A stretch of 64,000 nt of DNA from a virus: the IMG/VR virus record IMGVR_UViG_3300034107_000314, positions 64,001-128,000 of that record, one strand, 5' to 3'. Below, one piece after another: positions 22,494-64,000 of this stretch. The notes below the pieces were generated by a model. It was not told the DNA's origin. It saw nothing but the letters and a program-made list of their open reading frames with translations, and ran no database searches. Each line of letters opens with the position of its first letter. Positions within the stretch are counted from its first letter, which is position 1. Made by a program: the position numbers and the translations under genes.

Positions 22494-23146
22494 TTAATCA
22501 TTCCTTCGTTTATCTTGTATGTCATTGTTTCTTTGTCAAAAATTATTATTCCACGCTGCACTAGATCGTATGAAACTTTTTCTAAATTGCAATGTAGATC
22601 TCTATGCATTTTAGAACTATTACAAATTGCTAAATTATCAATGTTGTTATTTAATTTATCGCCATCTATATGATGGATAGATTCTCCACCGCCATTCCAT
22701 TGCGTTTTTAATTCTCTTCCGATAGTTTCTTCAACTATTAAAATATGCTCTTTTTTATATTTTTGACGACCAGATGCAGTGAATTCGCCTTCACATTTTA
22801 TCATTTTGTATCCATCAGAAGATATATATTCTCCACCATTCCATCTACTGCTATTTTCTCTTGAAAACTGAGGTTTTTTAACTCCCTTTTGAGCAATTTT
22901 TGAATGGCAGTTAAGACAATAGTTACTTTTTCGTCTTTTATATGAATGATAATCCACTTCTTTTGTTATTCCACATCCTTCGCACGTAGAATTAATTTTC
23001 TTTCTTATTTGTGGGATTGCACTTGCACATGCTTTACAATTAAATCTTTTTCCATCCTTTTGGTGTTTGTCGTTATGGAAGTCATCTATATTTTTTTGAA
23101 TTCCACATTTAGTACAAGTCTTCATGATTTTGCTTCTCCTGTGCAT
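22490..23146 (-). CDS. HNH endonuclease with N-terminal zinc ribbons
   Basis: CTKC...KDGKRFNCKAC; IHHIDGDKLNNNIDNL. Confidence 0.85.
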   Translation of the reverse strand: MHRRSKIMKTCTKCGIQKNIDDFHNDKHQKDGKRFNCKACASAIPQIRKKINSTCEGCGITKEVDYHSYKRRKSNYCLNCHSKIAQKGVKKPQFSRENSSRWNGGEYISSDGYKMIKCEGEFTASGRQKYKKEHILIVEETIGRELKTQWNGGGESIHHIDGDKLNNNIDNLAICNSSKMHRDLHCNLEKVSYDLVQRGIIIFDKETMTYKINEGMIK

Positions 23147-41408: not shown

Positions 41409-42735
41409 TCACCTGATCCCAGCATCGTCAAGTATCTTTTTGCATTTTTTGCAATCTATTTTCTTTAGTTCAGCAAATGTATTGTCGTTTGGATTAGATT
41501 CGGGATCATACATGATCCAATGCATTTTTCTCTCCTGACCACATAAAGACATAGGATAACTGTTCCAGTCACCGTAATGGGCTACTTTACTTCTTGCGGT
41601 AAATATTCTGAAAAATTCACGTATTTGCATTATATGCATTTCTTAGTATTTCTAAATCATTATCTTTAAAAAATTTATTTATTAGATTGGTTGAATTACT
41701 TTCTGCTTTTTCTTTTGTGGCAAAGCGTCCTAAAATATAAGATTTATTTTTAATTCGTAATCTTACACTGTATGGATTTATTTTACATCTAGCGTCAAAA
41801 TGTATATTTTTTGCATTATTATTTAAGCAATTATTGCTTCTATTTGTAAGTCTTAAGTTTTCTATTTTGTTATTTGTTTTATCTTTATCAATATGATCAA
41901 TTTCCATTAAATTTGGAATATTTCCATTGTGATATATCCATATCAACCTATGGGTGTAATATCTTTTACGATAAAAATTAATCTGCGAATAGTCGCCTAG
42001 TCTTTTTTTGCCTCCTGCAAGATCTCCGATTTTAGACCTGCAATGTGAGCCATTTCTTTTTTTCCAATACAAATTTCCATCTTTATAGTCAAACCATTCT
42101 AAAATGATTTCTTGCGGAGGATATTTAATTATATGTTTCATATTTAAAATTATCTCCTATTTTTTCACAAGATTGGCACTTAGGATGGATACTATTAGCA
42201 CTTGAGAATTCCCAGTTGCCTTTAGCGACACTCAGGTTGCACAGCGTCCTTTTACTGTTAGCTTGTACGAAGTGTGTAATCTTATTCTTTGATACTGCGT
42301 TAATATACTTCTGCATTATATTTCTCCTTTATTTTTGAACATTTCTTGCATTTTTTAAGATTGGCATCGTCAATTTCTTTATTTGCCCCGATAACAGCTT
42401 CCCATTGGCGATATTCAATTACTAAACCGCATAAAGTTTTATCATCGTTTATTCCACTAGTCAAGTGTTCTTTTAAATTTTTATGGGCATACTGTGGCCA
42501 ATAGCTGTGATGCATAACTACTCTAAGAAGTTTATCCATATCTTTCCATAGCCCCGTTATAAATATTTAAGCATTTCTTACACATATCAGTGTGGTTTAT
42601 GCTAGTAGATTTTCTATTGTCTGGAAAAACTTTTAAGGAACATAAGGTCTTATCTTTATCCCCACTCCAGACTATGTGGTTGATCTTACGACCTTTTCTC
42701 CAGTATGAATACATCATTCTTCTAGTATCGCCCAT
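41409..42735 (-). other. Four small paralogous His/Cys zinc-ribbon proteins (41409-41639, 42125-42316, 42300-42539, 42532-42735)
   Basis: Each has H-x(9-10)-LC followed by CxxC near the C-terminus. Confidence 0.7.
41617..42141 (-). CDS. HNH homing endonuclease with AP2-like C-terminus
   Basis: HRLIWIYHNG...IDHIDKDKTNNKIENLR...LGRFATKEKA. Confidence 0.9.
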   Translation of the reverse strand: MKHIIKYPPQEIILEWFDYKDGNLYWKKRNGSHCRSKIGDLAGGKKRLGDYSQINFYRKRYYTHRLIWIYHNGNIPNLMEIDHIDKDKTNNKIENLRLTNRSNNCLNNNAKNIHFDARCKINPYSVRLRIKNKSYILGRFATKEKAESNSTNLINKFFKDNDLEILRNAYNANT

Positions 42736-49962: not shown

Positions 49963-52432
49963 ATCTTTTGTCCTGCAATACTTGGTTAGTTGTTGTCTTC
50001 CTTACTCTTATATTATACCACAGGATTTCACCTTGTCAAGAGTTAAGAATACATTTCTTTCAATTCATTTACTTCCATCTGAGTGTTTACTATGTTCAAG
50101 GCCACTAGCATAGCAAAGTAGATTTGCTGCGATAGTTCCTTGTCACCCTGACTTACTTGATTAGCAAGTGTATAAACCAAGGTAGATAAGACTCTATTCT
50201 CTTTATTGAGTTCAAGAGCCTTATCCTTAGCATACTTGAGCAGATCTCTCATAGCCTCTCTATGGACACTCTCTCCCACTTCTACGTCAATCTTTGGTAG
50301 CATCATTTATCACTCTCACTTCTACAACAGGATATCCGACCCAAGCATTATATGCCACAGGAACTTCACGCATGATCCTTTCTCTGAGTTCAGGAGTCAT
50401 GTAATATTCGACGACTTTTAGGATCTGCTCTTTTTGGTGATGCGTCATGCTCATTATTTGATCTCGTACTTATAGGTTTTTTCTTCGTAGACTAAAGGCT
50501 TTGCCGTACTTACACCCTCTACGATTGCAAGACGATAGCCAAGACGTTCGAGAGCCTCATAGTGAGCAGCATCGCTTGACTGTACGTCACAATAGCCACC
50601 TTCTTCAGCGTCACGAATGTTTGCATCGGCCTTGAACTCCGCTTCTAAATCTTGTGACTCGCCAGTTTTTTCGTTGGTTAGGACAAATTTCCAGCTACGC
50701 ATTGTTGATTCTCCAATGTCACTTTCATGTTATGTACTAGTAGTTTGCTACCACTCATTGTCACTGTAGATATTGTACCATCTGGAGTCTTGCATGTCAA
50801 GATCCAAAGTTGATTATGTCGAACGATTTCGTAGGTGTTCATGATTGTCCCCAATTCTCAATTTCGTATTGTGTTTCGCCAGCGTTTCGAGCGTAGATAG
50901 TTTTATCACTTGCGTAGGGATGGTCAAAGTTGAAAGGCTTATAGATCTCATACTTATATAGAGACCCATTCGTCTTTTTTACTACCAGCCCTTTGGACTT
51001 AGCTAGTTGTTCAAGAGCTTTGAGTGTTAATCTCATTTGTCAATATCCTCTGGTAAGGGAAATCCACCAATGACAGGACAGTTATCTCCATCCAATTCGC
51101 CTTGAGTTCGGATACCCATATTCTCTAGCTCAGCCTCAAACGCCTCTTGACTATCTAATAGACGATCAAGCAGTGTTATTTGATAGTATTCAATTAGACT
51201 TTCTATATCCATACTGTCAACCGACAACTGAGCCAGATTCTTACAATTACTGTATGTGTTCTCGATCATATCTTTCCCTTTCTTGTACTGCAATTATATC
51301 ATATGAGGGGCTGAATGTCAACCCCCCAAGCTATATATTTTTAGTCAATCTGGGCGAGCAGTTCGCCAGCACGCTTGGCCGCGATGATTTCGGCCAGCTT
51401 GGAGAGATCCTTCTTAGGCTTGCGAACTTCGTCGCTTCGTCGCATGGTCGGCAGTTCTACGCCAACTTCCTTAAGCTCTTTGCGGAGCTTGAGAGCCTTC
51501 TGGTAAGACGTTTCAAGGTCAAGGCCAAAATGGTCGGCAACGTCTTGGATCGTGCCACTGGTGACGTTTGTAGCGGCATCAAAGCCACGTTGGAAAACAT
51601 CCATATAAACAGACACAAAATCTTCAGCATTGATGAACTTGCGTGTTGTTTTAGCCATCGGTATAGATCTCTTTCTTTAGATAGAAGATAGTGGATTTGG
51701 CTTCAAACCAGTCGTGAGTGAGATCCACTTAACTCATCATACGTTTGACTGGCTATACTACTATTATACAGGATAGAACGCAGTTGTCAAGACTTACTTG
51801 GTGAAAATTACAGGATTCACCATTTTTACACATGAGAGGGAAGCAATGCGATTGAACCCCTTGTCAGTGTATTGCAGGACGACATATTGACCATTAGAGC
51901 TTACACCCTGACGAATGATCTTACCATCACGAACCTTGAGGATATTACGATTGCCGCCTACAGGGTAGGAAACAACCAACTTACGACCGTTGCGAACATT
52001 GATTGACTTGAGCATATCTTAGATCTCCTTAGAACTGACACTTGGTTACTGACCACACATATATTCTAACACAGGTGAGTTTACTTGTCAAGCATACGGC
52101 CAATAATCTGATTTTATTTCATGTTTCAGATCCTTGACCTCAGCTTCAAGTAGAACTACGTATTCCTCTAGCTTTTTATGTATTTCTTGATAGTAGCGGT
52201 CAGCTTGTGACCCTTCCCAATCATAACCATAATCCTTAACCTGATTAAGAATGCACTCGTCATATTTCTGTCTAGTAGAGGCAAGCTCATTTTTCACCTG
52301 TTCAATCTTACTCATCTTTTCACTCCACTTCGTTTCGTTCGTTTCTCACTTCCTTACTCCTATATTATACATCATAGAAAGCTGTTGTCAAGCCCTGTGG
52401 GGTGTTATTTTGGAGATTATTTTATATTGTTG

Positions 52433-52509
52433 TAAGTGCTTGTGGTGTAAGGACTTGCGGCGAGGCGCGCTAGCGGGGTCGCTGTAAATCCTTACGTAGT
52501 AAGTACTTA
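52433..52509. repeat. Bipartite palindromic element, copy A
   Basis: TAAGTGCTT-GTGGTGT-AAGGACTTG, 27-bp GC-rich spacer, TAAATCCTT-ACGTAGT-AAGTACTTA. Confidence 0.85.
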
Positions 52510-52553
52510 CGAAAAAACCCACCGCAACGAGCGATGGGCCACTTTAAAAGGAA

Positions 52554-52627
52554 TACCCCGATCAGGATTTGAACCTGAAACCTACAGCTTAGAAGGCTGT
52601 TGCTCTATCCAATTGAGCTATCGGGGC
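52554..52627 (-). tRNA. tRNA-Arg(TCT)
   Basis: ACAGC-CTTCTAA-GCTGT. Confidence 0.93.
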
Positions 52628-52698
52628 TTATATTGAGTATTTTGGTCATAAGATAATCTCAGGTAAGAATACTCAAACTTACTTTAGTGATTATCTAA

Positions 52699-52783
52699 TA
52701 CGGATGATGGGAATCGAACCCATATGAGGTTTAATCCTCGACAGATTTTAAGTCTGTTGCGTATACCATTTCGCCACATCCGC
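52699..52783 (-). tRNA. tRNA-Leu(TAA)
   Basis: ACAGA-CTTAAAA-TCTGT; long variable arm. Confidence 0.93.
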
Positions 52784-52788
52784 ATGAA

Positions 52789-52861
52789 TACCCCTACGGA
52801 GAATTGAACTCCGGTTTCAAGATTGAAAATCTTGCGTCCTAGGCCACTAGACGATAAGGGC
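52789..52861 (-). tRNA. tRNA-Glu(TTC)
   Basis: CAAGA-TTTTCAA-TCTTG. Confidence 0.92.
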
Positions 52862-52870
52862 ATTTACCAC

Positions 52871-52943
52871 TTGGCCTATCGGGGTACGATCCCGAAACCT
52901 GTCACTTATAAGGTGACTGCTCTACCAATTGAGCTATAGGCCA
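52871..52943 (-). tRNA. tRNA-Ile(TAT)
   Basis: GTCAC-CTTATAA-GTGAC; T-loop ATCGTAC; A73. Confidence 0.88.
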
Positions 52944-54956
52944 GTAGATGCCATTTTTGGACTGAAGTCAATCTCGTTTGGGAAATGGCAAACCCAACTT
53001 CATTGATCGACTATCTTATTATATCACTTCACTTTCAGTTTGTCAACTAGACGCCTGAGAAAACTCTTGTTAATCTTCTGGACATTTACGAGACGACCAT
53101 CGTAGAATGACTTGATTTTATTATCACTCAACTGAATGGTCAGCAAATACTGTGATCTCTCAAGATCCATGTTACGCAAGATTGTCTCGTATCGCAGTCT
53201 ATGTTCAAACATATCACGAACTTGGATTACAGTACCTTCATATTCCTTGATCTCATATAGGGTATGAGCAGGAAGATGAGTACGATCTAATTTCCGTTCG
53301 ATGTACTGGAACTTGACTTTGTTACCAGCGGTCAATTGTGCGATCATCTCTATCTTCTCCTGAAAGGTTTGAATCATCTTCATCTCACTACTCTATTATA
53401 CCATCTCGTATTCACTTGTCAAGCAACTTTTTCGAGAACTTTCCTCGAATCTGTATTCGCCAGCAAAGATTTCGTTCAACGTCTCTAGGCTAGCAATGAA
53501 GTCACGATAAGATGAGAACTCATCAATATCGGTTTTTTGGTTATCGTATACTTTGCCAGTTGACAGGTTTGTCATCTTGTAGAAATAGATCATTCGTCTT
53601 CTCCTATTTCAAAAACTTCCCAGTCGTCTACATCCTTAGTAGAAAAATACTCTACAGTATAAGGATACTGTTCTATCTTCTCATTTGCTATTTCTTTAGC
53701 ATGATCTCTATTCTCAGCTTCAACGTCGATATCAACGCCGTGAATTTCGTACACTCTGACGACATACTTCTTCATACATTACCCCGGATAGATAGAGATA
53801 TTGAAACCACTCAAGAACGCATCGGACAACAGCTCAAATCGACCACCACCGTGGCTTGGCATGAAGATATGAATATCTCCATTATCTGCGATGTTACCAG
53901 AGAACATCTTATCAAGAGTTGGCACATACAGCAAGCAGTTCGTTTCCATCACTCACTCCCTTTCTTACTACTCTATTGTATCACACGATCCTGTCTTGTC
54001 AAGCTCAAAATGCCTTAATCGTAAGATTTTGAATTGGCAAGAGAGAGATGTTTATCACTTTGGGCTGCTTTGGTTCTTCGACCCTTACCTCTACGCTTCC
54101 CACTTTGGGAGCTACCAGAGCAGGAAATGGGGCTTCCCGCTTCTGGAAGTGTTTGCATCCACTGCATGACAGGATCAAAACCGCAATAATCGTCAATCGC
54201 ATAGGTCACTCCTTTGTTAGTTTCCCTATATATATTATCGACATTTTGCGGCTCCCTATCCAGCTTATTCTCCCAAAATTCAGCAGAAAATTCAAGAACA
54301 TCTCTCATCGGCTACACTCCCTATAAAAAATTAAACTTCTTCAGGCCAGTTAAACCACAGTTGAGGTTGATTCTTATCTATAAGATAGTCTTCATCATCA
54401 TTATCTAGCATGAGTGCATCATGATCTAGTATATATGTTGAATCGTTTTCTACATCGTACAATTGAATGTCAGTGTCCAAGAAACGCTCATCAATCTGAG
54501 CTTCTTTAAGTTCACGCCATGTCATGGTCGATATCCCTTTTATCAGTGGTTCGTTCCCACCGTTGTTTATGTTCTACTACATCATGCAAATATTTCTTGC
54601 CATCGCTGTTGAATGTCCATACATCCATCACTTCTTCCTGTTCAGGGATGATAAGATCGTCATCACCACTTGGGTCGTACCCCTTAAGAGCTTCGCGAGT
54701 TGCCCCCCGAAGTTTCTTGTTACATTGTTTCTTGCTACTCTTATCAGAGTCACCAGCGATTTTGAAGATTGGCGTTTTGCGATATGACTTACCCACTTTA
54801 TTCTCCACTTTCAGGACATGAGATGCTTAGCATAATTCCACACATGAATAGCGTAAATACCATCATAGATTATACCTTCATTAAAACCTCCAACAGAGCC
54901 GACAGATTGTTGTGTATCATGATACTATTATACCATACGGATACAGGAATGTCAAG

Positions 54957-55028
54957 AGCCGAGGGAGGGATTTGAACCCCCAACCTTTGCTTTACAAAAG
55001 CACTGCTCTACCGTTGAGCTACCCCGGC
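54957..55028 (-). tRNA. tRNA-Thr(TGT)
   Basis: TGCT-TTTGTAA-AGCA; acceptor GCCGGGG/CCTCGGC. Confidence 0.92.
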
Positions 55029-55031
55029 GAA

Positions 55032-55103
55032 TGGAACTACTGGGGGACGATCCCAGACTAACACATTAAAAGTGTGCGGTGCTGCCAGTTACACCATAGT
55101 TCC
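55032..55103 (-). tRNA. tRNA-Lys(TTT)
   Basis: GCACA-CTTTTAA-TGTGT; T-loop ATCGTCC. Confidence 0.88.
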
Positions 55104-55158
55104 AAGCTAGGACCACATAATGGTCCCGTTTCATATCGCACACATGGTACGACAGAAG

Positions 55159-55230
55159 CTGGTCAGGTAGGACTTGAACCTACAACCGTTCCGTTAACAG
55201 CGGAATGCTCTACCATTGAGCTACTGACCA
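55159..55230 (-). tRNA. tRNA-Asn(GTT)
   Basis: TTCCG-CTGTTAA-CGGAA; G73. Confidence 0.93.
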
Positions 55231-55235
55231 AAGTA

Positions 55236-55362
55236 CGTTTGAATGGGAGGAATCGAACCTCATCTCACCTCTTATTCCACCTAGATTATCTGACCACAGA
55301 ATGCAAAGATGGGAATTGAACCCATTCGATCTAGTCGGGACGCTTCCTGCGTTCATTCAAAC
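55236..55362 (-). ncRNA. tRNA-like RNA with two T-arms and no anticodon loop
   Basis: 9-bp terminal stem GTTTGAATG/CATTCAAAC; T-arms ATGGG-TTCAATT-CCCAT and GAGG-TTCGATT-CCTC; CTAGAT/ATCTAG stem; lies between tRNA-Tyr and tRNA-Asn. Confidence 0.72.
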
Positions 55363-55364
55363 AT

Positions 55365-55445
55365 TGCGTGCTAGTGGAATCGAACCACTTAAGGCGTAGC
55401 CACCTGATTTACAGTCAGGTCCGTTATCCAACTCGGTCAACACGC
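55365..55445 (-). tRNA. tRNA-Tyr(GTA)
   Basis: CCTGA-CTGTAAA-TCAGG; variable arm. Confidence 0.9.
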
Positions 55446-56215
55446 TTCGTATTACTATTATACACCAGATTCCAATTTTGTCAACCGATCTTTCAATTCT
55501 TTTATGATTTTCTCAAGTCCGGCGACTTGCCATTCGGCGATGTTCAGCCGTGACTCAATTGATGGTGGCTCTGGCTTATCAGCATAGTCGCAGAAGTTGA
55601 AAGTCTCAATTCGGCTATGCTCATAGTGAACAGGTTCGCCATGTACAGTCTGGATTCCATCGGGCGAGTAGAACTTCACTAAGATATGATTGTCTCCATC
55701 GTCCCAACCGTCAGCAGCTTCCAAGCATTCGATATAGTACCAATTCCTATAGTCGGGAAGCTGGGCTTTCATTCTAGCCAATTCAGTGGTACTGGGCCGG
55801 AATGTTGTGTGTTTCCAAGATACGCTCATTCTGATATCCTTTTCAATAGGTCAATAGCGGTTTGAAACTCTGGACGATCTTTGTTGTTGCTTCCTAAATT
55901 CCTTAGTAGCCACAACACGTTGTCTTCTCTCAGTTCTATTCTACCACGGGGAACATCCATTGTCAAGAGTAATTCCATAAGAGCTACCCTAGTTTTTAAA
56001 AAGAAGATCTCATCGTTGAGTGTGTCTATGAAATACGACATCAGAATTGCCCCTTGAAAACCATCTTGATTAGTTGACCAACACAGTAACCAGCAACCAG
56101 AGCTATGACTTCTAACATCTGCAACTCTCCTTTGAGAAGGGTGACTCGTTTCTTATATTACTATTATACATTATCGACATCCTGTTGTCAAGTGTTTAGA
56201 CCAAATTATTTTAAT

Positions 56216-56321
56216 AAGTTAGCTGACTGTAGCTTAACGTGGCGAGCCTTAATATATAGGATAATCCAAAGTTAGCTGACTGTAGCTTAACTTTGCGTAT
56301 CTGATTATATAGGATAATCCA
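56216..56321. repeat. Two tandem 53-bp copies of the AAGTTAGCTGACT repeat
   Basis: AAGTTAGCTGACTGTAGCTTAAC...TATATAGGATAATCCA twice, period 53 bp. Confidence 0.9.
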
Positions 56322-56411
56322 CCCCCACCCCCCAGACCACCCAGATTACCCAAACTACCCAAACCTCCTAATCGCTATAAACCCTATAACCCACCCATCT
56401 TAACATCGACG

Positions 56412-56488
56412 TAAGTATATATAGTATAAGGACTTATGGCGTTTCCCCCTGCCGCCCTCGCCGTAAACCCTTACTGGCAAAGGACTTA
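56412..56488. repeat. Bipartite palindromic element, copy B
   Basis: Boxes start at 56412 and 56464. Confidence 0.85.
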
Positions 56489-58145
56489 TATCAATTGTAT
56501 TTCAGTCAATAAAAAATGCAACCGCCGAAGCGATTGCATTTAATATTAATCACGTTGGCATAATGATATTGCAATGCCCATAAAGAACATCAATATTATT
56601 ATCATCAGGCCACCAAGATACCCGCCTTCCGTTGTGTCATGATTTCAATTTGCTTAAGTCTATCACGAATCCCCATACGCTTTACACCATATACAGGCGA
56701 ATAGATATTAGGATTGGTTTTAGTTGACTTACGAACTCTAGCGGCTTGCAAGGTGTAGGGAGTAAGAAAGGGATGAGTCTTTTTCAAGACTGGGCTATTC
56801 TTATTTTCCAACATTGCGTAAATGCTATCGGCGAATTGTTTTAATGTCGAATCGGCACAGTGAGTGCGGAATTCGTTGCCATTTTTTTGAACCGATACCA
56901 CTTTGTTTCCAAGCAAGAGCAGATCAGATCGGCCAGCGGTGATGCCAGCGGTTGCGTTTGAAGTCTTGGCAATTTTACGATCTGAGTTCTGAATGCGAAT
57001 CGACATGAATATTTCACCTTAGATAGTGAACAATCGGACACCGCGAAGTTGCGGAACGCAATAGGTGGAATCGAACCACAATTTCAGGTTCAACTTTTTT
57101 CTTGATTGAGTCGTTTTTTTAGAACGCCTGTCAAGAGTTGAACATGAAAGAACCATCATCGCGGAAGTCAAGTGTCGGAATCGAACCGACATTAAACCAT
57201 TCTTGACGTAGGGATTATTCATCCCCGAAGAAATCTTCGCACCATTTTTCATAGCTAGAACGGGCGTTGAATTCTTGAACGATTGCTTCCAATTGGGCCA
57301 CGACTTCCATCGGGTCAAGAGCAAACGCCACTTCCATATCCAGCAAATCTTGCTCGGTTGGAATATAGTCGCCTTGAACATCTTCGCATTGCAATTGGGC
57401 GTCGAAATCGTCGAATTGATTTTGCATCTGTCGTTTCCTTTGTTTGAGTCTCGTTTGCCTTACACCACTATTGTATCACACCGCAAGCGATTGTCAAGAG
57501 ATTTTTCCATCGGAATCTAGGGAATAAACCACCACGACTTCCAAGCCATTTTTAGCAATCCAATAGCCCGCACCAAGTTCTCGGCATTGACGGGCGTACA
57601 CTATTGCATCATCTGAATTCAGCATGATCGCACGTTGAACGATTATTTCGCTCGTTTCTACTATGGTTTCGACATCGGTTGGAATTGCGTATTCAGCCAT
57701 CTTGAAAGCCCTTGTCTGAGTGTTGTTTGCTTGCCTTACACTACTATTATACCTGATTAACTCGCGTTGTCAAGTATATTTTTTTGAATTTCTTCAAATA
57801 GTTTTTCAGCAGATTGAAGGGAATCAAAGAAGACCGTTTCCGTTTCTCCGTTGATGGCACGCTCAACAGAGAATCCAAAGCTAGAATTCTTTAGCTTGAA
57901 CATCATCACGGCGTTTTTACCACTGCGAAATTTCCGTAACCCTGTTTTTACAGTCATCAGATTCATCGTACCGCTCTCCGCTGAGTGTTAGATTCTTTTC
58001 TTCTACTGCCATCATACCATATATATCGACCATTACAAGCCCCTACCACCACTATTTTTCAAAATATTTTTAGACGCTGCCCAGCCGGGGTCACTCTGAG
58101 TCAGTATATTATTGTAATGCAATTGCATTAATAATACAATTGATA

Positions 58146-58222
58146 TAACTACTTGCTACATAAGGACTTATGGCGCGCCCCCTAGCCCGGCTCGCCGTAA
58201 ATCCTTACACCGCAACGACTTA
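58146..58222. repeat. Bipartite palindromic element, copy C
   Basis: Boxes start at 58146 and 58198. Confidence 0.85.
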
Positions 58223-58389
58223 GGTCGATTGCATTATAATATAATTAAATTAACATATGTAAATTAGTTGATGTGATAATTAAAAAGAGATGCAACCGGA
58301 TATTACCCCGATTGCATTTAATTGTTTAATCAGATGATAATATTGCAATTGCAACGCCCACGAAAAAGCAGATTACAATTGTCATTTAA

Positions 58390-59187
58390 TTACCCCACCA
58401 AAGAAACGGATCTGGCCGTGACCCTTTCCTTTTTTTTGGCCTTTTTAACCTTGGGCTTGGCGGGTTGCGTACCGTGAATAATCAAGGCGAATGACTTATT
58501 ACGGTTGTCAGGGATAGCGGCGTGGGAATCGTCGTTATCGACTTCCAGATTAAAATCTTCGGCCTCATTTTCATTTTGCAATACAATTGCTTCCCGCAAT
58601 TTAAATTCATCAATCTTGGAATCGAGTCTACCACCACGACTTGCGGTCAAGACAAGGTTCGATATAGGATTGACAATTTTCATATCATCAATCCAATAAT
58701 TTAATGCTTTGGTATAAGCATAAAAGAGGATTGATGGATTATTCATAATCACTTGCAACCAAGCTCTGAAATATATGCGGTTGAAGAAATCACCCGCAAC
58801 GTGAATACGAACGATACCGGCGTTTTTTGGCAAGTTCGCTTGAATTAATCTTGCGATTGCATTTATTTTCTCAACTTCGCTCAAACGATTGTCGGATACA
58901 ATCGCACGAATCGCATCGAAATTGGCCTTGCGGAGATTGTAAACATTGGTGTAAACAACTTCCTGCGAAGCTGAAAAACAGCGAAATTCGGTATTTGGGC
59001 CATCCTGAATCCTACGCTTGCCATCGACCAAAATAGCCCGACTCATACACTTGTCAGCTTGTGGACATGCCCAGCCTGATAAGAGGTCGAAACTGTAAAT
59101 CTTACGGCCACCGTCAAGCCACTTGGCAAGAGCGGCGACTTTGTACAGTTTTTTGAGCTTTGTATTTGCGGCTGAAAACTTGACCAT
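58390..59187 (-). CDS. GP88-like phage protein
   Basis: NTKL...SFDLLSGWACPQADKC...CFSA...VRIHVAGDFF...FYAYTK. Confidence 0.7.
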   Translation of the reverse strand: MVKFSAANTKLKKLYKVAALAKWLDGGRKIYSFDLLSGWACPQADKCMSRAILVDGKRRIQDGPNTEFRCFSASQEVVYTNVYNLRKANFDAIRAIVSDNRLSEVEKINAIARLIQANLPKNAGIVRIHVAGDFFNRIYFRAWLQVIMNNPSILFYAYTKALNYWIDDMKIVNPISNLVLTASRGGRLDSKIDEFKLREAIVLQNENEAEDFNLEVDNDDSHAAIPDNRNKSFALIIHGTQPAKPKVKKAKKKERVTARSVSLVG

Positions 59188-60063
59188 GATTCTATCCTGT
59201 CCTGTGATTGTGATACTGGCGTTACTTGACTAGTGAATTATACCACACCGAATCGGGAATGTCAAGAGGGTCGAACCACTTGGTTATTGAATACAAACCG
59301 CAAGGCTTGCATCAAATCTGAGATGTATGTAGGTTCTGACGAACCGTCAAGATAGTCCACACAATAGCTAGAACTCTTAGTATCTTTGGTTAGCGACAAT
59401 CGGCCATTGAGTGAGAACATGGCATAGTCTGTAATGTTCAGGGCCGGCGACTCGACACCCTTAACACGAATGAACCACTGACTAGCGATTGATTTTTCAT
59501 TTTTGTTGAACTTGCGAACCATGCCGGAATCCCCTTGGAAAGTGTTACTTGCTTGACTTATTAGATTATACCACGGATCGGCCACCGTGTCAAGAAATCT
59601 TTTTAAGATAGTTCAAAAGACTTTGGAAAGTTTTGAAATACCTTACTTTAGGCTCTAGGCCCAAGCCCCGTTGATATTCCCAAGCGTCAAGTTTGAAGTT
59701 TCTAGCGTTTGTAATCGAGACCGATCCAAAGTTGGACTTGACAACGAAATTCCTACGAACTTCGAAGTTAGTGTTAAAGCCCATATTTTCTAGGCTGAAT
59801 AGTTGAAGCTGTGAAAAGCTCCACCCCGTTGACGTTGAAGCACTTCGGATAACTCGCTCAATGTCCAGATGATCCATGTTTCTTTCCCTGCTAGTGTGAT
59901 CTTGCCTTACATATATATTATCGGCTATCGCGGCCCAAAGATCAAGCCCATTTGGCCTAGATAAGAAATTTCTTATTTTCAAGATTTGCTATTGTGTTGG
60001 GCCGATCTTGTCGATATACTATATAGATCAAGTCAGTCACCACTATTCAGAAAGGTCAGAACT

Positions 60064-60588
60064 ATGCCGAAATACTATCGTCGATCATCTGGAATCGTTA
60101 CCCGTTATTGGGTAGTAGAAACATACTCTTTTCAAACGGCCAGTGATCGTGAAACCTTTTTTGCTTGGATCAAAGGTCAAGATGAGGGCAAAGTTGACGA
60201 TGTAGAAATGGATGGATGTTCTATTACAGTTCGCTGGAATCGCTGATTTTCACCACCACCATAAAGGATAGATATGTCCAATTTTACCAGAACCGATCTT
60301 GAAATTCTCGCGGCCTTTGATATTCCTACCAAATGGCTTCCCGCCAAATATCAAAACGGCCAGTCACACGTTAATGCAATTGCATTATTAAATCAGCACA
60401 AAAAAGCTGAGAAAGTTGCAATGAAAAAAGCTGCCAAAGCTCAGGCCAAAGCGGATCGGGCCATCCGATTATCCCATTACATATGTCAAGTGCAACGTGG
60501 GGAAGAAATACAATTCGACGTTAATGAAATGCAATTGTATAGCAATCAATTAAAATTCGTACAGGGCTTGTATACAAGGCTCAAATGA
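60064..60588 (+). other. Two plus-strand hypothetical ORFs (60064-60246, 60274-60588)
   Basis: AAAGG and AAGGA RBSs; divergent from 59590-59982. Confidence 0.6.
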
Positions 60589-60607
60589 GCCTATAATGCA
60601 AACGATA

Positions 60608-60720
60608 TAAAGCCTTGCACCGTAAGGACTTACGGCAAGGCCCGTAGCGGCGAACGCTCTAAATCCTTACAGGGTAACGACTTATATCACAGTCGTAAAT
60701 CGTTACCCCGTATAGACTTA
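60608..60720. repeat. Bipartite palindromic element, copy D, with a third box
   Basis: Boxes start at 60608, 60660 and 60696; sits between convergent genes. Confidence 0.85.
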
Positions 60721-62856
60721 CGCCTTAATGCAATTTCTCTGAGAGTTTATATCGCATTTTATCTACCATTTTATATAAGGCATCATCGTACCCTACATGA
60801 TGTTGAATTTCATCGACTGTATCATCAATGAAATCTTTTAATATTTCAATATTCAATTTGAGAGTTTCAATCTCATCTCGTTTATTGGGGAATATTGTAT
60901 GAATTGCATTATCGTTCATGTAATCAGATCCAATCATTTTGGCACTCCTAATACAAGGCCATTCTGGAAATTGAATTTGTCGCCGTTATTGTATCTCACA
61001 AGCCATTCATAGTTTTTTTGAAAGATGCAATCGGCGACCATCTCATAATTCTCATATTTCATCAATTGCAATAGAGCATTTAAACGCTCTTTAGTTGTGG
61101 CACTACGAACGCCACCATCGTAAATATAGATGGAACCGGCGATACTTTTATCAGCGATTGTATTTCCATACAAACGCAAAACCTTTCCATCTGTGGTTGT
61201 ATTTCCATTGCGTTTAGGCTTTCCAGCAAGAAAGGCTGAAATGACTTCGCGTGATATTTTTCTCATACTAGTGTCCCGTTCCTGAAATTGCGGATCAATG
61301 TTTTGTTGAGTTCGTGAAGATTTTTGACTTTCAACTCATACCATTGCTTCTCATATAAAGCCTTGGCGAGTTCCATTTCAAGATACTCGATCCGAGCATC
61401 TTTATCTGAGTCGATATTGATCTTATTTCTCGACATCGAAAAAACCACCGTAATCTCTAGGATTGTGAATTGATGCCACCATCAATAGGCCAGTGAAACC
61501 AAGAACAGCGATGATGAAAAAATCACTCATTTGATTCTCTTTTCTAGTTGTGCGATACGGGTACAGATTGCCATCGTGTCATTTTCCGATTCAATATCCG
61601 AATCACCATTGATTAGGACATTCCGCAGGAATTGAAGTTCTTCCATATCACCGTCAACTTGATCCATGATACCATTCAGGGTGTTTAGGATCTTGATTAG
61701 CTTTGCCATCTGTCGTTTCCTCGTTTGACTTCCGCGTTTCTTATACTTCTATTATACACTGCTAATACGGATTGTCAAGAGTTTATTTTACGATTTGCAA
61801 TGCTTTCTTGTAACATTTTTGAAGCGGCCTGAATAAGTTCTTCGGCCTGTGCTGGCGTGTATTTGCTTGGTTCTGTTTTTTGAATATAGGCGTCCACTTT
61901 TTTGGACTCGCTATTTGTTAAACAGTCTACACAGACATCACCAACGGTGCGACTGATTTTCATCGAAATCAGATTAATGATGGGTGAGGATGAATCGGGC
62001 GTTTGATCGTCGATGTAGTAAACACTCTCACAGCGACCGCATGTGAACCGTTCCATTCTTTCACCATTCATTCCGTATACCGTTGACATTTTCGTTTCCT
62101 TCGCTTGATTACTGTCATCTATCACTATGTATATTATACGCTATGCTGATTAGAAGTCAAGCATAATTCCAGAAGAATCTTTCGATATTCTTTCCGGCCC
62201 ATTGTTGCTTGACCATATCGGCCACAATCTGTGAGACATTATCATAACATCCATCGGACGTTACGATGATAAACTTGCGGTAGGTTTTACCACTCATTAC
62301 CACGTTCACAGAGACCTTTTCTTGAATCAGCATTTTCGTTTCCTTGACTAGTGGCTTGTTTCTTCTACTACTATTATACGACATCCAGCCCGAATGTCAA
62401 GAGATTGTTTCGACCAATCTATTAAAATCAAAGAAATATTGTGGTATTTTTTTGCCTGCTTCCTGATAACGATAGTTTGTTCCATAGTTCTTGGCAAGTT
62501 TGTACTTTCTACCATATCCGTTAAGATCCGCTACAATTGCGGTTATCGTTCCCTTGTTTTCATTGCATACCACATCGGCCCCGCCATCAAAGCCCAGAGC
62601 CTTAAGAGTTGTTAGTTGATCTTGTGTGAAACCGTTCATGATTCTGTCCCTTACTTGTGTTGATTGCTTACCCTTATGTATATATTATCGTCTATCTAGG
62701 CCCAAAGGTAAAGACAATTCCCAACTATTTTGAAAAGTATTTTTGTACACTAATCAGACCTGTATATCTAATTACTATTGGATCTATATATCCGATTTTA
62801 ATTTAGATAATTAGACCTAGATATCCAATTACACCTGTCGCGGCTATCTGATTACA

Positions 62857-62933
62857 TAAAGTGTTACACCGTAAGGACTTACGGCGTTCGCCGCTGCCGC
62901 GATTTTCGTAAATCCTTATACAGCAAGGCTTTA
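62857..62933. repeat. Bipartite palindromic element, copy E
   Basis: Boxes start at 62857 and 62909. Confidence 0.85.
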
Positions 62934-64000
62934 TGACTTGTCACCAGTCACAAGGCCCATGCTCCCATACATCCACATATGTAATTTCATTTATACGATA
63001 TGTGCATTCATATGCAATCACATCGCCGTTATCATCATAGGCAATTGCAATTGAATCATAATCAGTTGAGTAGTATAGCATTATTCAGCCATCTCCTTTT
63101 TCATCTTCCGAATTTTTTCTTCGTTGTATCTTATATACATTTCGAGACTAGGATTACAAGTCCAAACATCTGCGATTAGTATAGCACGGGCAGCTTTCAC
63201 TACTTCGATATCGTCTTGCAATTTCTTTATTTTCAATTCAATTTCCGACATAGCGGTTTTCATCAACAACCTTCTTCTTCCGTTTGAATGTGTACAACAC
63301 CTTTATTATCTGTCAGCACATTAACTATGTCTTCTTCACACTGTAAGTGATCGTAAGGGTAATCGACCAAAACTTTGGCGTTTGGGTCAAGTTTGGACAA
63401 TTCAGCAATCAATTCAGATACGGTCATTATTTAGCCCCTTTGATTAAAGCCTTCAATGCTTCCAATGTGTTAGCCTTTGCGTCAGGCCCATCCCACCCAT
63501 CGGCTATTTCAGCATCATACATTAGCAATGAATCAATTGCCATATGAAATTCGATATAGAGATCCAGTTGCTTTTTTGTGGCCGATTGTTTGTGAGTCTT
63601 AGCTTTGCTCATCGTCATCTCTCTACTTGGTTACTTGCTTCACTTCACTAGTATATTATCGACTATTCCAGCACTAAAGTCAAGATGGTTTTTTGAAATT
63701 CTTTACGAGTTCATCATCTGCCTTATCTGCCTCATGGTCAACCGTAAGGCAGAACAATACAGCAGTTCCAGAGGCGTTACTAGAAAGCCCACGAAGTTTT
63801 AGGTTATTATCCCGTGTACAGAAAGTCACAACGGCATCATCCGATAGATCAGCTAGCATTGCGAGTAGAGTAGCTTTAGTCGTCATAGTATCGTTCCTTT
63901 GTGCTGGTTACTGTCATCTCTATCACTACGTATAGGATACCATATATATCGACATCCTACAAGATAATTCTCAACTATTTTTACAGTTCGTCCATATCTT

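Follow-up and report, generated by a model that had tools for sequence, protein, structure and literature searches.

Paired palindromic boxes between the early transcription units of an uncultured lake phage point to a previously undescribed control of early genes

Introduction

What are the paired palindromes that recur between the early transcription units of an uncultured lake phage, and do they act as sites on DNA, as RNA structures or as mobile sequences? They were found in a 64,000-nucleotide stretch (the window) of a 155-kb genome, as 77-bp pairs of boxes. Temporal control of early genes is understood in only a handful of model phages. The element described here is a cis-element with sharp limits, open to sequence search and present in hundreds of contigs from uncultured phages. 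It marks the boundaries of early transcription units, and its five-turn box spacing and its 10.5-bp register with the −35 hexamer lead to direct, testable predictions. For annotators it offers a handle on the early regions and early promoters of an uncultured clade, and it can serve as bait for a new transcription regulator.

Anatomy and positions of the elements

Each element consists of two 25-bp dyads of the form TAAGTCCTT-N7-AAGGACTTA, with the flanked consensus cg-TAAGTCCTT-N7-AAGGACTTA-cg, separated by a GC-rich spacer of 27 nt (Table 1). An earlier note on this DNA had described five such elements, and all five are present with dyad starts exactly 52 bp apart, GC-rich 27-nt spacers, N7 cores that vary between copies, and D and E spacer arms that are inverted relative to each other. 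The count of five holds for the window, but the genome has seven elements, since F and G lie past the window end (genome positions 128650 and 129556), plus a single box beside D. This single box scores 17.2 bits against a shuffle maximum of 14.4.

The motif is strongly enriched. Against an expectation of 0.61, the window contains 10 copies of the skeleton TAA-N4-TT-N7-AA-N4-TTA, eight of them inside elements, and TAAGGACTTRYGGC with up to two mismatches is likewise present 10 times (0.85 expected). A position weight matrix scan of the whole phage, which the earlier note had proposed, returned 13 boxes in the 155-kb genome when the matrix was trained on relatives alone, all of them at 116.4–129.6 kb, in the early region. 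Box 1 of B and box 2 of G are degenerate. All boxes have the 9-7-9 geometry of two inverted arms around a core, and the half-site centres of one box are 16 bp (1.5 turns) apart. No two of this genome's 14 boxes have the same N7 core, apart from those of the related elements E, F and G, which belong to a ~270-bp repeat module that also contains a weaker promoter. The genome (CheckV: 100% complete) carries a 2997-aa open reading frame of tape-measure size.

Table 1. Elements and neighbouring features in the window (window coordinates)
Feature	Position	Strand	Dyad starts	Details
Perfect promoter TTGACA-16-TATAAT	52364..52391	(-)		41 bp downstream of A
Element A	52433..52509	(-)	52433/52485	Box 1 52433-52457, 27-nt GC-rich spacer, box 2 52485-52509
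Intrinsic-terminator-like hairpin and T-run	52516..52540	(-)		Ends tRNA-Arg unit, directly upstream of A
tRNA-Arg	52554-52627			
Element B	56412..56488	(-)	56412/56464	Box 1 degenerate (TAAGTATAT); box 2 56464-56488, 27 bits
Intrinsic-terminator-like hairpin	56514..56541	(-)		~25 nt upstream of B
Element C	58146..58222	(-)	58146/58198	Box pair at 52-bp period
Intrinsic-terminator-like hairpin	58290..58317	(-)		~60 nt upstream of C
Element D	60608..60684	(-)	60608/60660	Box pair at 52-bp period
Extra single dyad box, TAAATCGTT-N7-ATAGACTTA	60696..60720	(-)		36 bp from D box 2
Weaker promoter TTTACC-17-GATAAT	62712-62684			In the E/F/G module
Element E	62857..62933	(-)	62857/62909	First of three ~270-bp repeat-module copies (E, F, G)

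Spread and conservation of the family

The family is widely distributed in uncultured viral contigs, with more than 250 unique copies, and was not found in GenBank phages, Rfam or large bacterial contigs. The 52-bp period, which had been called invariant, is kept by the five window copies, but relatives mostly use 53 bp. In an unbiased set, 133 pairs have a period of 53 bp, 22 of 52 bp, 26 of 50 bp and 21 of 41–42 bp. The box-to-box period is quantised, and most of the pairs lie at whole helical turns; the 50-bp class does not.

Across the family the half-site columns are 90–100% conserved while N7 is variable. In comparison with the closest relatives (L088 and L100), the half-sites have changed at 3 of 180 positions (1.7%) and the N7 and spacer at 25 of 205 (12.2%; Fisher p = 4e-5), and all lengths are the same. 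The half-sites are under purifying selection. The spacer can take either orientation relative to the promoter (24 G-rich, 14 C-rich, 22 neutral), which indicates that its composition and length alone matter. Spacer arms also recur both ways round and as chimeras, and many single boxes have neither a partner nor a GC spacer.

Promoters and helical register

Elements A, B and C lie just past minus-strand terminator-like hairpins, as had been reported, and upstream of promoters, and are therefore probably, for the most part, outside transcription units. The link to promoters was absent from the earlier note, as were the two further copies and the breadth of the family. A near-consensus TTGACA/TATAAT promoter is found within 400 bp on exactly one side of 82 of 114 unique elements, and on both sides of one. 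The element in relatives is upstream of this promoter, 20, 30, 41 or 51 bp from the −35 hexamer, and the distances have peaks at 30–33, 40–42 and 49–53 bp. The strongest period in a Rayleigh test is 10.5–10.75 bp (R = 0.55, p ~ 4e-5, 33 dereplicated sites), and the phasing was replicated in an independent one-box-anchored set (R = 0.73, p ~ 1e-5, 22 dereplicated sites). The order in 60 oriented elements of relatives is the element, an A-tract at a fixed distance, and then TTGACA...TATAAT.

Within the window this order is clean in A only, and A is also the only element of this phage with the canonical promoter spacing (41 bp). For the other elements, the next recognisable promoter is 86–372 bp away or there is none within 400 bp. 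In one relative the promoter is still perfect where the element is missing, which shows that promoter identity does not depend on the element.

The dense promoters of this region, 14 perfect and six near-perfect sigma-70 sequences in 14 kb, also bear on a structural role that needs no protein. The palindrome and GC clamp could form a cruciform, a supercoil buffer or a curvature module that insulates adjacent, very strongly transcribed units, and the position of the elements at unit boundaries, the fixed A-tract and the free spacer orientation are consistent with this. Such a module leaves the near-invariant bases (TAA..CCTT), which have no co-varying partners, unexplained, and it sits poorly with the many single boxes. 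GC-rich centres moreover disfavour cruciform extrusion. A purely structural role is quite improbable.

Folding of the element

The element could also act in the RNA. A read-through transcript would fold into one long or two small hairpins, and the fold would be an RNase III-type processing site, protect the 3' end or terminate transcription in an unconventional way. The RNase III sites that separate the early genes of T7 provide a parallel. The folding proposed in the earlier note is feasible, with whole-element energies of −18 to −39 kcal/mol for the window copies. In relatives, about one third of the ORFs that precede an element have their end within it or at its edge, no terminator intervenes, and the element is thus probably transcribed there. 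A first, pattern-selected data set pointed in the same direction, with 88.6% paired on the sense strand vs 77.3% on the antisense strand and dyad departures that were G-U-compatible on the sense strand. This bias is gone in a set that was not selected for it, in which half-sites of box 1, for example TAAAGCCTT/AAGAACTTA, have central mismatches.

Compensatory covariation was absent. Neither the covariation scores nor the percentage paired exceeded column shuffles for the long-hairpin or the two-hairpin model on either strand (for example, 71.6% paired vs 72.5% in the shuffles, and 88.6% vs 88.7%). Mutual information showed neighbour correlations only, and spacers fold no better than shuffled spacers (z ~ −0.3). 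The stems are conserved and the N7 loops are free, usually the reverse of the pattern in protein-recognised RNA hairpins. No U-tract was found after the element hairpin, where A-tracts occur instead, and separate canonical terminators already lie upstream of A, B, C and G in this phage. The family has no Rfam match, and the helical phasing to the downstream promoter lacks an RNA rationale. An RNA-level function is, on these grounds, unlikely.

Gene blocks and mobility

The elements are located where multi-gene early blocks begin or end, and relatives differ in which of these blocks they have and in what order. A block with families 8, 17, 24 and 26 is relocated in L059/L074 vs L032, and individual elements are present in some relatives and absent in others. 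The earlier suggestion that the elements mark cassette boundaries holds as a description, and no further than that. One explanation would be an attC-like or PeSL-like recombination module that promotes excision, insertion and shuffling of early blocks, either site-specifically or by homologous recombination. If the elements do promote block exchange, this would help to explain the reshuffled sets of early host-takeover genes. The 9-7-9 geometry shared with tyrosine-recombinase core sites, the inverted and chimeric spacer arms, and the documented shuffling by PeSL cassettes of T4-type phages (PMC2839356, PMC4122927) agree with such a module.

The earlier hint at tyrosine-recombinase sites finds no support in the enzymes or in the cores. 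Tyrosine recombinases, serine recombinases and Y1 transposases (PF00589, PF00239, PF01797) have no match in the complete 155-kb genome, and no integrase was found in it, although a host enzyme could still act. Because the 7-bp cores are not the same from copy to copy, tyrosine-recombinase strand exchange between copies would be blocked. Elements B–E are in synteny with their counterparts in L100 and have remained stable, and a filled/empty site (L035 vs L032) revealed neither a target duplication nor a precise core junction. Homologous recombination alone would not account for half-sites that are conserved over hundreds of diverged copies, as this needs sequence-specific selection. A recombination module is decidedly unlikely.

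The same comparisons bear on a further reading, in which a miniature inverted-repeat element has spread selfishly between the genes of phages and does nothing for them. In its favour are the terminal inverted repeats (TTGACG-TAAG...CTTA-CGTCAA), the many copies per genome, the presence/absence polymorphism and the very wide distribution in viral contigs. Orthologous elements are stably inherited, however, and paralogues have diverged in spacer and N7. The genome encodes no transposase, target-site duplication is absent at the filled/empty site, and the strict confinement to the early region and the helical register with promoters are not expected of such an element, which makes a selfish origin very improbable.

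Proposed mechanism

The element points to a previously undescribed control of early phage genes. Our tentative preference is for a DNA-level platform for two protein dimers, held in helical register with early promoters. The earlier note had proposed a phased two-dimer platform, and the conserved half-sites, the lack of covariation, the quantised period and the promoter register agree with it. Because no binding protein was found, binding itself is something that we infer, as are the two-dimer mode and the sign of the effect on transcription. The earlier note had found no recognisable cognate protein, and none of the 30 early-region proteins searched contains a credible DNA-binding domain.

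In the proposed mechanism, each element would be a cis-acting site on duplex DNA, and each 25-bp box would probably bind a dimer of one sequence-specific protein. The stiff GC-rich spacer of fixed length would keep both boxes at a distance of five turns and on the same side of the helix. The module is placed after one early unit has ended and ahead of the next early promoter of sigma-70 type and, in the wider family, in a fixed helical register relative to the −35 hexamer of that promoter. The bound complex may contact RNA polymerase or shape the upstream DNA. Early promoters would in this way be either boosted when infection begins or turned off at the switch from early to middle genes. As a by-product, the dispersed repeats may mark where relatives have gained, lost or rearranged early blocks.

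Several observations count against such a platform. A distance of 16 bp between half-site centres is unusual for simple helix-turn-helix dimers, and the early proteins searched include no candidate with a recognisable DNA-binding domain. The canonical spacing in A only, the promoter without an element, the probable transcription of the element in many relatives and the 50-bp class that is off whole turns also weigh on this side.

It is possible, if doubtful, that the boxes are sites of a new and widespread DNA-binding protein. As a dimer of dimers on the DNA, it would form a complex that resembles an enhancer or a silencer and keeps strictly to a helical register with sigma-70 RNA polymerase. 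This protein could be encoded by the phage or be a factor of a Planctomycetota-type host. If so, the elements would represent a new regulatory system for the immediate-early programme of a large uncultured phage clade, and the half-site arrangement in Phycisphaerae would reflect the same protein. As separate observations, Planctomycetota-type hosts are suggested by other features of the genome, and a related half-site arrangement occurs beside HNH-AP2 mobile genes in Phycisphaerae chromosomes.

Comparison with known systems

The closest known kind of element is the PeSL (promoter-early stem-loop) cassette of T4-type phages (Arbiol et al. 2010, PMC2839356; Comeau et al. 2014, PMC4122927). In those cassettes a short intrinsic terminator makes up the stem-loop, and its sequence varies from one phage pair to another (PMC2839356, PMC4122927). 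Both are repeated intergenic cassettes amid small genes of unassigned function, and both have a dyad or stem-loop, an A/T-rich stretch and a near-perfect TTGACA-N17-TATAAT promoter in that order. PeSL cassettes are associated with insertions, deletions and shuffled blocks in closely related phages, and the reordered blocks and the presence or absence of elements seen here may reflect a similar association. On the other hand, the element here is a 77-bp pair of 25-bp boxes, and the 9-nt arms show conservation in hundreds of diverged copies. The element has a GC spacer of fixed length, no U-tract, separate upstream terminators in this phage and a 10.5-bp register with the promoter. The phage is also not T4-like, its terminase being 25–27% identical to those of Bacillus and Microcystis siphophages and its 2997-aa ORF being of tape-measure size.

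In phage phi29, the dimeric regulator p4 has inverted-repeat sites upstream of early and late promoters, where several dimers bind in helical phase and the early promoters are switched off. The elements differ from p4 sites in sequence, half-site spacing and site number, and are dispersed every 1–4 kb instead of being gathered in one control region; a p4-like protein was not found in this phage. The L5/Bxb1 stoperators, the phiC31 conserved inverted repeats and the P1 C1 operators are dispersed repressor sites of temperate phages and likewise place many copies of one motif across early-operon intergenic regions. Those sites are single, 13–17 bp long, often inside transcription units, orientation-dependent and served by a known repressor, whereas the element here is bipartite, lies upstream of promoters and belongs to a genome without an integrase.

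Tyrosine-recombinase core sites and attC share the 9-7-9 dyad geometry, and attC is likewise bipartite, with two simple sites of this kind whose inner and outer arms are complementary. The element differs from them in its lack of a recombinase, its differing cores, the absence of any sign of selection for single-strand folding, and its promoter link. Sites I and II of Tn3/gamma-delta res are two dimer-binding dyads about 53 bp (five turns) apart and are phase-sensitive. The res site, by contrast, is made up of three subsites and is found a single time in each element, next to the resolvase gene, and a serine recombinase is missing here. The traits of dimer operators that are present are conserved half-sites with a free centre and a promoter register, the latter in this phage in element A only.

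Genome and early region

The record is 155,259 bp long and rated complete, and the window covers bases 64001–128000. Within the window the genes and all 15 tRNAs are carried on the minus strand, at a GC content of 28–43%. A split DnaE-type polymerase is encoded by the phage. Terminases of cultured Bacillus and Microcystis siphophages share just 25–27% identity with that of the phage, which makes this an uncultured lineage. At the genome ends (1–212 and 155047–155259) the first 50 bases are repeated 162 bp inward and the last 50 are repeated 162 bp back. This points to a tandem repeat of ~162 bp at each end of the record; a terminal repeat array is one possible source, wrap-around in the assembly another.

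Genome 113–131 kb has the typical make-up of an early region, with small ORFs and many sigma-70-type promoters. TTGACA/TATAAT promoters are enriched there relative to the whole genome. Window 50000–64000 (14 kb) contains 14 perfect TTGACA-16/17-TATAAT promoters and 6 near-perfect ones (one mismatch); all lie on the minus strand, and nearly every small early gene thus has a consensus promoter to itself. At the Rfam gathering thresholds the window contains tRNAs and no other RNA family, and tRNA is the sole basis of the matches between GenBank phages and the early region. Window 59986–60588 has plus-strand ORFs of 104 and 86 aa and a minus-strand ORF of 56 aa, with third-position-biased substitutions relative to L100, a contig of a relative; between element D and 59982 either strand may be the coding one. 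Two HNH_3 endonuclease genes lie remote from the elements, and an AP2 domain was not detected by Pfam in either.

Coordinates of the elements and associated features (L-numbers are sequence loci; L107 is this phage's own genome past the window)
Feature	Position	Strand	Remarks
Structural genes	genome 1–38 kb	+	include a 2997-aa ORF
Minus-strand gene tract	genome 43 to 131 kb	-	
Plus-strand gene tract	genome 131 kb onward	+	
HNH_3 gene	window 41830–41961	-	open frame 179 aa
HNH_3 gene	window 22613–22690	-	open frame 220 aa
Elements A to E (starts)	window 52433, 56412, 58146, 60608, 62857		
Elements F and G	genome 128650 and 129556		
Extra single dyad box, TAAATCGTT-N7-ATAGACTTA	window 60696–60720		36 bp from element D box 2
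Repeat modules of E, F and G	window 62560–62960; L107:400–770; L107:1330–1700		
ECF-sized sigma factor, 169 aa	L107:3030–3539 = genome 131,030–131,539	+	Sigma70_r2, 28.4 bits
Conserved 263-aa protein, no known family	L107:3532–4323, up to genome 132,323	+	pairs with the sigma gene
Phycisphaerae element	L116:1968–2080; L141:4310–4420; L147:3200–3320; L157:2460–2570; L160:6100–6215		

Elements in the phage genome

The five elements of the earlier note are present exactly as it described them, each with two 25-bp dyads (boxes) whose starts are 52 bp apart around a 27-nt GC-rich spacer. The window has 10 occurrences of the dyad skeleton TAA-N4-TT-N7-AA-N4-TTA (0.61 expected), eight of them inside elements. 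The count of five holds for the window, but the whole genome has seven, since two more copies (F and G) lie in the same orientation just past the window end. In a whole-genome scan with a position weight matrix trained on relatives only, 13 boxes scored higher than any shuffle, all at genome 116.4–129.6 kb. They include the extra single box beside element D, which makes this element tripartite.

Minus-strand terminators immediately precede elements A, B and C, as had been noted, and are canonical; a weaker one with a T8 run precedes G. A repeat module of ~270 bp is common to E, F and G, and in it the element is accompanied by a conserved stretch (GATTAGTGTACAAAAATACTTTC...), a weaker promoter of the TGGACA-17-GATAAT type and a Shine-Dalgarno sequence. 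The module of E has an insertion of ~58 bp. Four elements are syntenic with the relative L100 (81–94% identity), in which four such modules stand in place of the two of this phage.

The element family in other sequences

Viral contigs were scanned with the inner half-sites separated by a free gap of 15–45 nt, which gave 49 matches at 29 nt, 16 at 28 nt and 17 at 27 nt; the remaining gaps were rare. Nearly all copies at 28 and 29 nt have a GC-rich spacer and the complete four-half-site architecture. The 27-nt peak was rejected as part of the family, being mostly an unrelated AT-rich repeat, TAAGGACTTATTGTATAAGTCTAAAAACTTATTTTTTAAATCCTTA, identical in 16 viral contigs (L002, L013, L026 and 13 others), whose ends happen to fit the search pattern.

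With a single box as the anchor, a second scan gave at least 120 loci. Among the matches listed, the box-to-box period is 53 bp in 133 pairs, 50 bp in 26, 52 bp in 22 and 41–42 bp in 21, and boxes also occur singly. The 52-bp period proposed as invariant thus holds for all five window copies but is a minority class in relatives, among the matches listed. From these period classes and the single boxes, the 25-bp dyad cg-TAAGTCCTT-N7-AA(G/C)GACTTA-cg emerges as the basic unit, and the 52-bp pair of this phage is one of its quantised arrangements.

GenBank phages gave no match to element plus promoter, and literature sought by the half-site strings gave unrelated papers only. In bacterial and archaeal genomes, true elements with a GC-rich spacer are found only on short contigs (0.7–21 kb, ~40–49% GC) that resemble phage DNA in composition and are spread over MAGs of unrelated taxa. 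These contigs are most simply explained as mis-binned phage fragments. Chromosomal copies of the true element were not found in these genomes, and so no host is identified by this route.

Duplex DNA or folded RNA

An RNA-processing element remains a rival, and the earlier note had suggested that the element could fold as one long or two small hairpins. For both models, 77 copies were aligned and assessed in either orientation. Column shuffles do as well as the real alignments in the share of standard pairs and in every covariation measure, so the pairing potential is a property of the palindromic consensus and not of co-evolving partners. Mutual information shows neighbour effects only, and the spacers fold no better than shuffled spacers. 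The sense strand of copies collected by the inner half-site pattern appeared better paired through G-U wobbles; this asymmetry was discarded as RNA evidence, having been enforced by the search pattern itself. In the unbiased set collected with the single-box anchor, central mismatches between the half-sites of box 1 are frequent among the matches listed.

Between orthologues in the closest relatives, the half-sites are changed at 3 of 180 positions and the N7 plus spacer at 25 of 205 (p = 4e-5), with lengths unchanged. Arms that are kept, a centre that varies freely and a spacer limited only in length and GC content are the signature of a protein-binding dyad in duplex DNA. The GC-rich spacer core is found in both orientations relative to the promoter, which accounts for the inverted D and E spacers that had been noted. 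A supposed gene, 'ORF family 0' (16 loci), was dismissed because it is no more than the element read in translation.

Helical register with early promoters

A near-consensus sigma-70 promoter lies within 400 bp on exactly one side of 82 of 114 unique elements, and on both sides of one. In promoter orientation, (ttgacg) is followed by half-site H1 (TAAGTCCTT or TAAACCCTT), N7, H2, the GC-rich spacer, the nearly invariant H3 (TAAGTCCTT), N7 (aYgCCAC), H4 (AAC(G/A)ACTTA), cgacaa, an A-tract and the -35 hexamer. Distances from element edge to -35 cluster at 20, 30, 41, 51 and 62 bp. A Rayleigh test places the peak period at 10.5–10.75 bp (R = 0.55, p ~4e-5; 33 dereplicated sites), and this is replicated in a second data set (R = 0.73, p ~1e-5; 22 sites, among the matches listed). 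Leftward promoters, used there as a control, show no comparable peaks among the matches listed, apart from those at the same distances with 53 bp added.

In relatives (e.g. L032:8396–8423, L090 and L035), element-linked promoters have CCCC just before TTGACA and (g)CCGATA 2–4 nt past it, inside the spacer. These motifs may mark promoters of a distinct subclass, or else an overlapping second -10 (GATAAT).

Element A of this phage fits the canonical spacing, lying 41 bp from its promoter at window 52364–52391. The next recognisable promoter is 86 bp from G, 96 from F, 144 from E, 220 from B and 372 from C, and D has none within 400 bp. As only A is canonically spaced, the promoter coupling is inferred mainly from relatives. 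A purely structural element remains a rival. Based on the half-site conservation, the lack of covariation and the 10.5-bp promoter register, the phased two-dimer platform proposed in the earlier note is the best-supported mechanism, and we tentatively favour a DNA-binding platform that keeps its helical register to early promoters, at a probability slightly below even.

Search for a cognate protein

Pfam or PHROGs searches of ~35 early or conserved proteins, with two Atlas look-ups, identified no element-binding protein, in agreement with the earlier reading of the window. The only domain matches among these proteins are a sigma factor, GP88/DUF7227, Kyano_Gp96 and a DUF932-like domain. Conserved early proteins include a 73-aa family at window 51794–52015, a Zn-ribbon family of ~85 aa and a basic family of ~64 aa. 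The genes of the ECF-sized sigma factor and the 263-aa protein are divergent from the early region, and the pair recurs in 29 element-bearing loci.

Recombination and block shuffling

The layout had also been compared with tyrosine-recombinase core sites, and a recombination element remains a rival. The elements are positioned at the borders of multi-gene early blocks, and relatives differ by relocated whole blocks and by single elements present or absent. Against a recombinase site, genes for a tyrosine recombinase, a serine recombinase or a Y1 transposase are absent from the 155,259-bp genome, and the N7 cores vary from copy to copy. A selfish element is a further rival. In one filled/empty pair, the element with a 30-bp A/T linker is present or absent directly 5' of an intact -35, and this pair shows no target duplication. 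In about one third of relatives the upstream ORF stops at the element's own TGA or TAA. In our view, the block shuffling results from the dispersal of the repeats and is not their primary function.

Comparison with known systems

A related element of ~130 bp is conserved in Phycisphaerae/Sedimentisphaerales MAG chromosomes, at 1–3 copies per genome. It reads AAGGACTTA-N29-TAAGTCCTT-N7-AAGGAATAA followed by an A-tract, with a flanking palindrome, CCTCTATATATAGGG. In half-site sequence and inner spacing (29 nt) it agrees with the phage element, which may point to one common binding protein; the spacer is AT-rich in Phycisphaerae and GC-rich in phages. In four of six loci it lies ~150–300 bp 5' of an HNH_3+AP2 endonuclease gene, and its neighbours are defence or mobile genes (SIR2-TPR, AAA_25, Nmad2). 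HNH-AP2 proteins were rejected as box partners in the phage loci, where 2 matches in 10,291 ORFs show no association.

Comparable block shuffling has been documented for the promoter-early stem-loop (PeSL) cassettes of T4-type phages (PMC2839356, PMC4122927). The elements described here, located at block borders, with relocations and presence or absence among relatives, bear some resemblance to this pattern. They belong to the promoter-associated regulatory cassettes that are dispersed in phage early regions.
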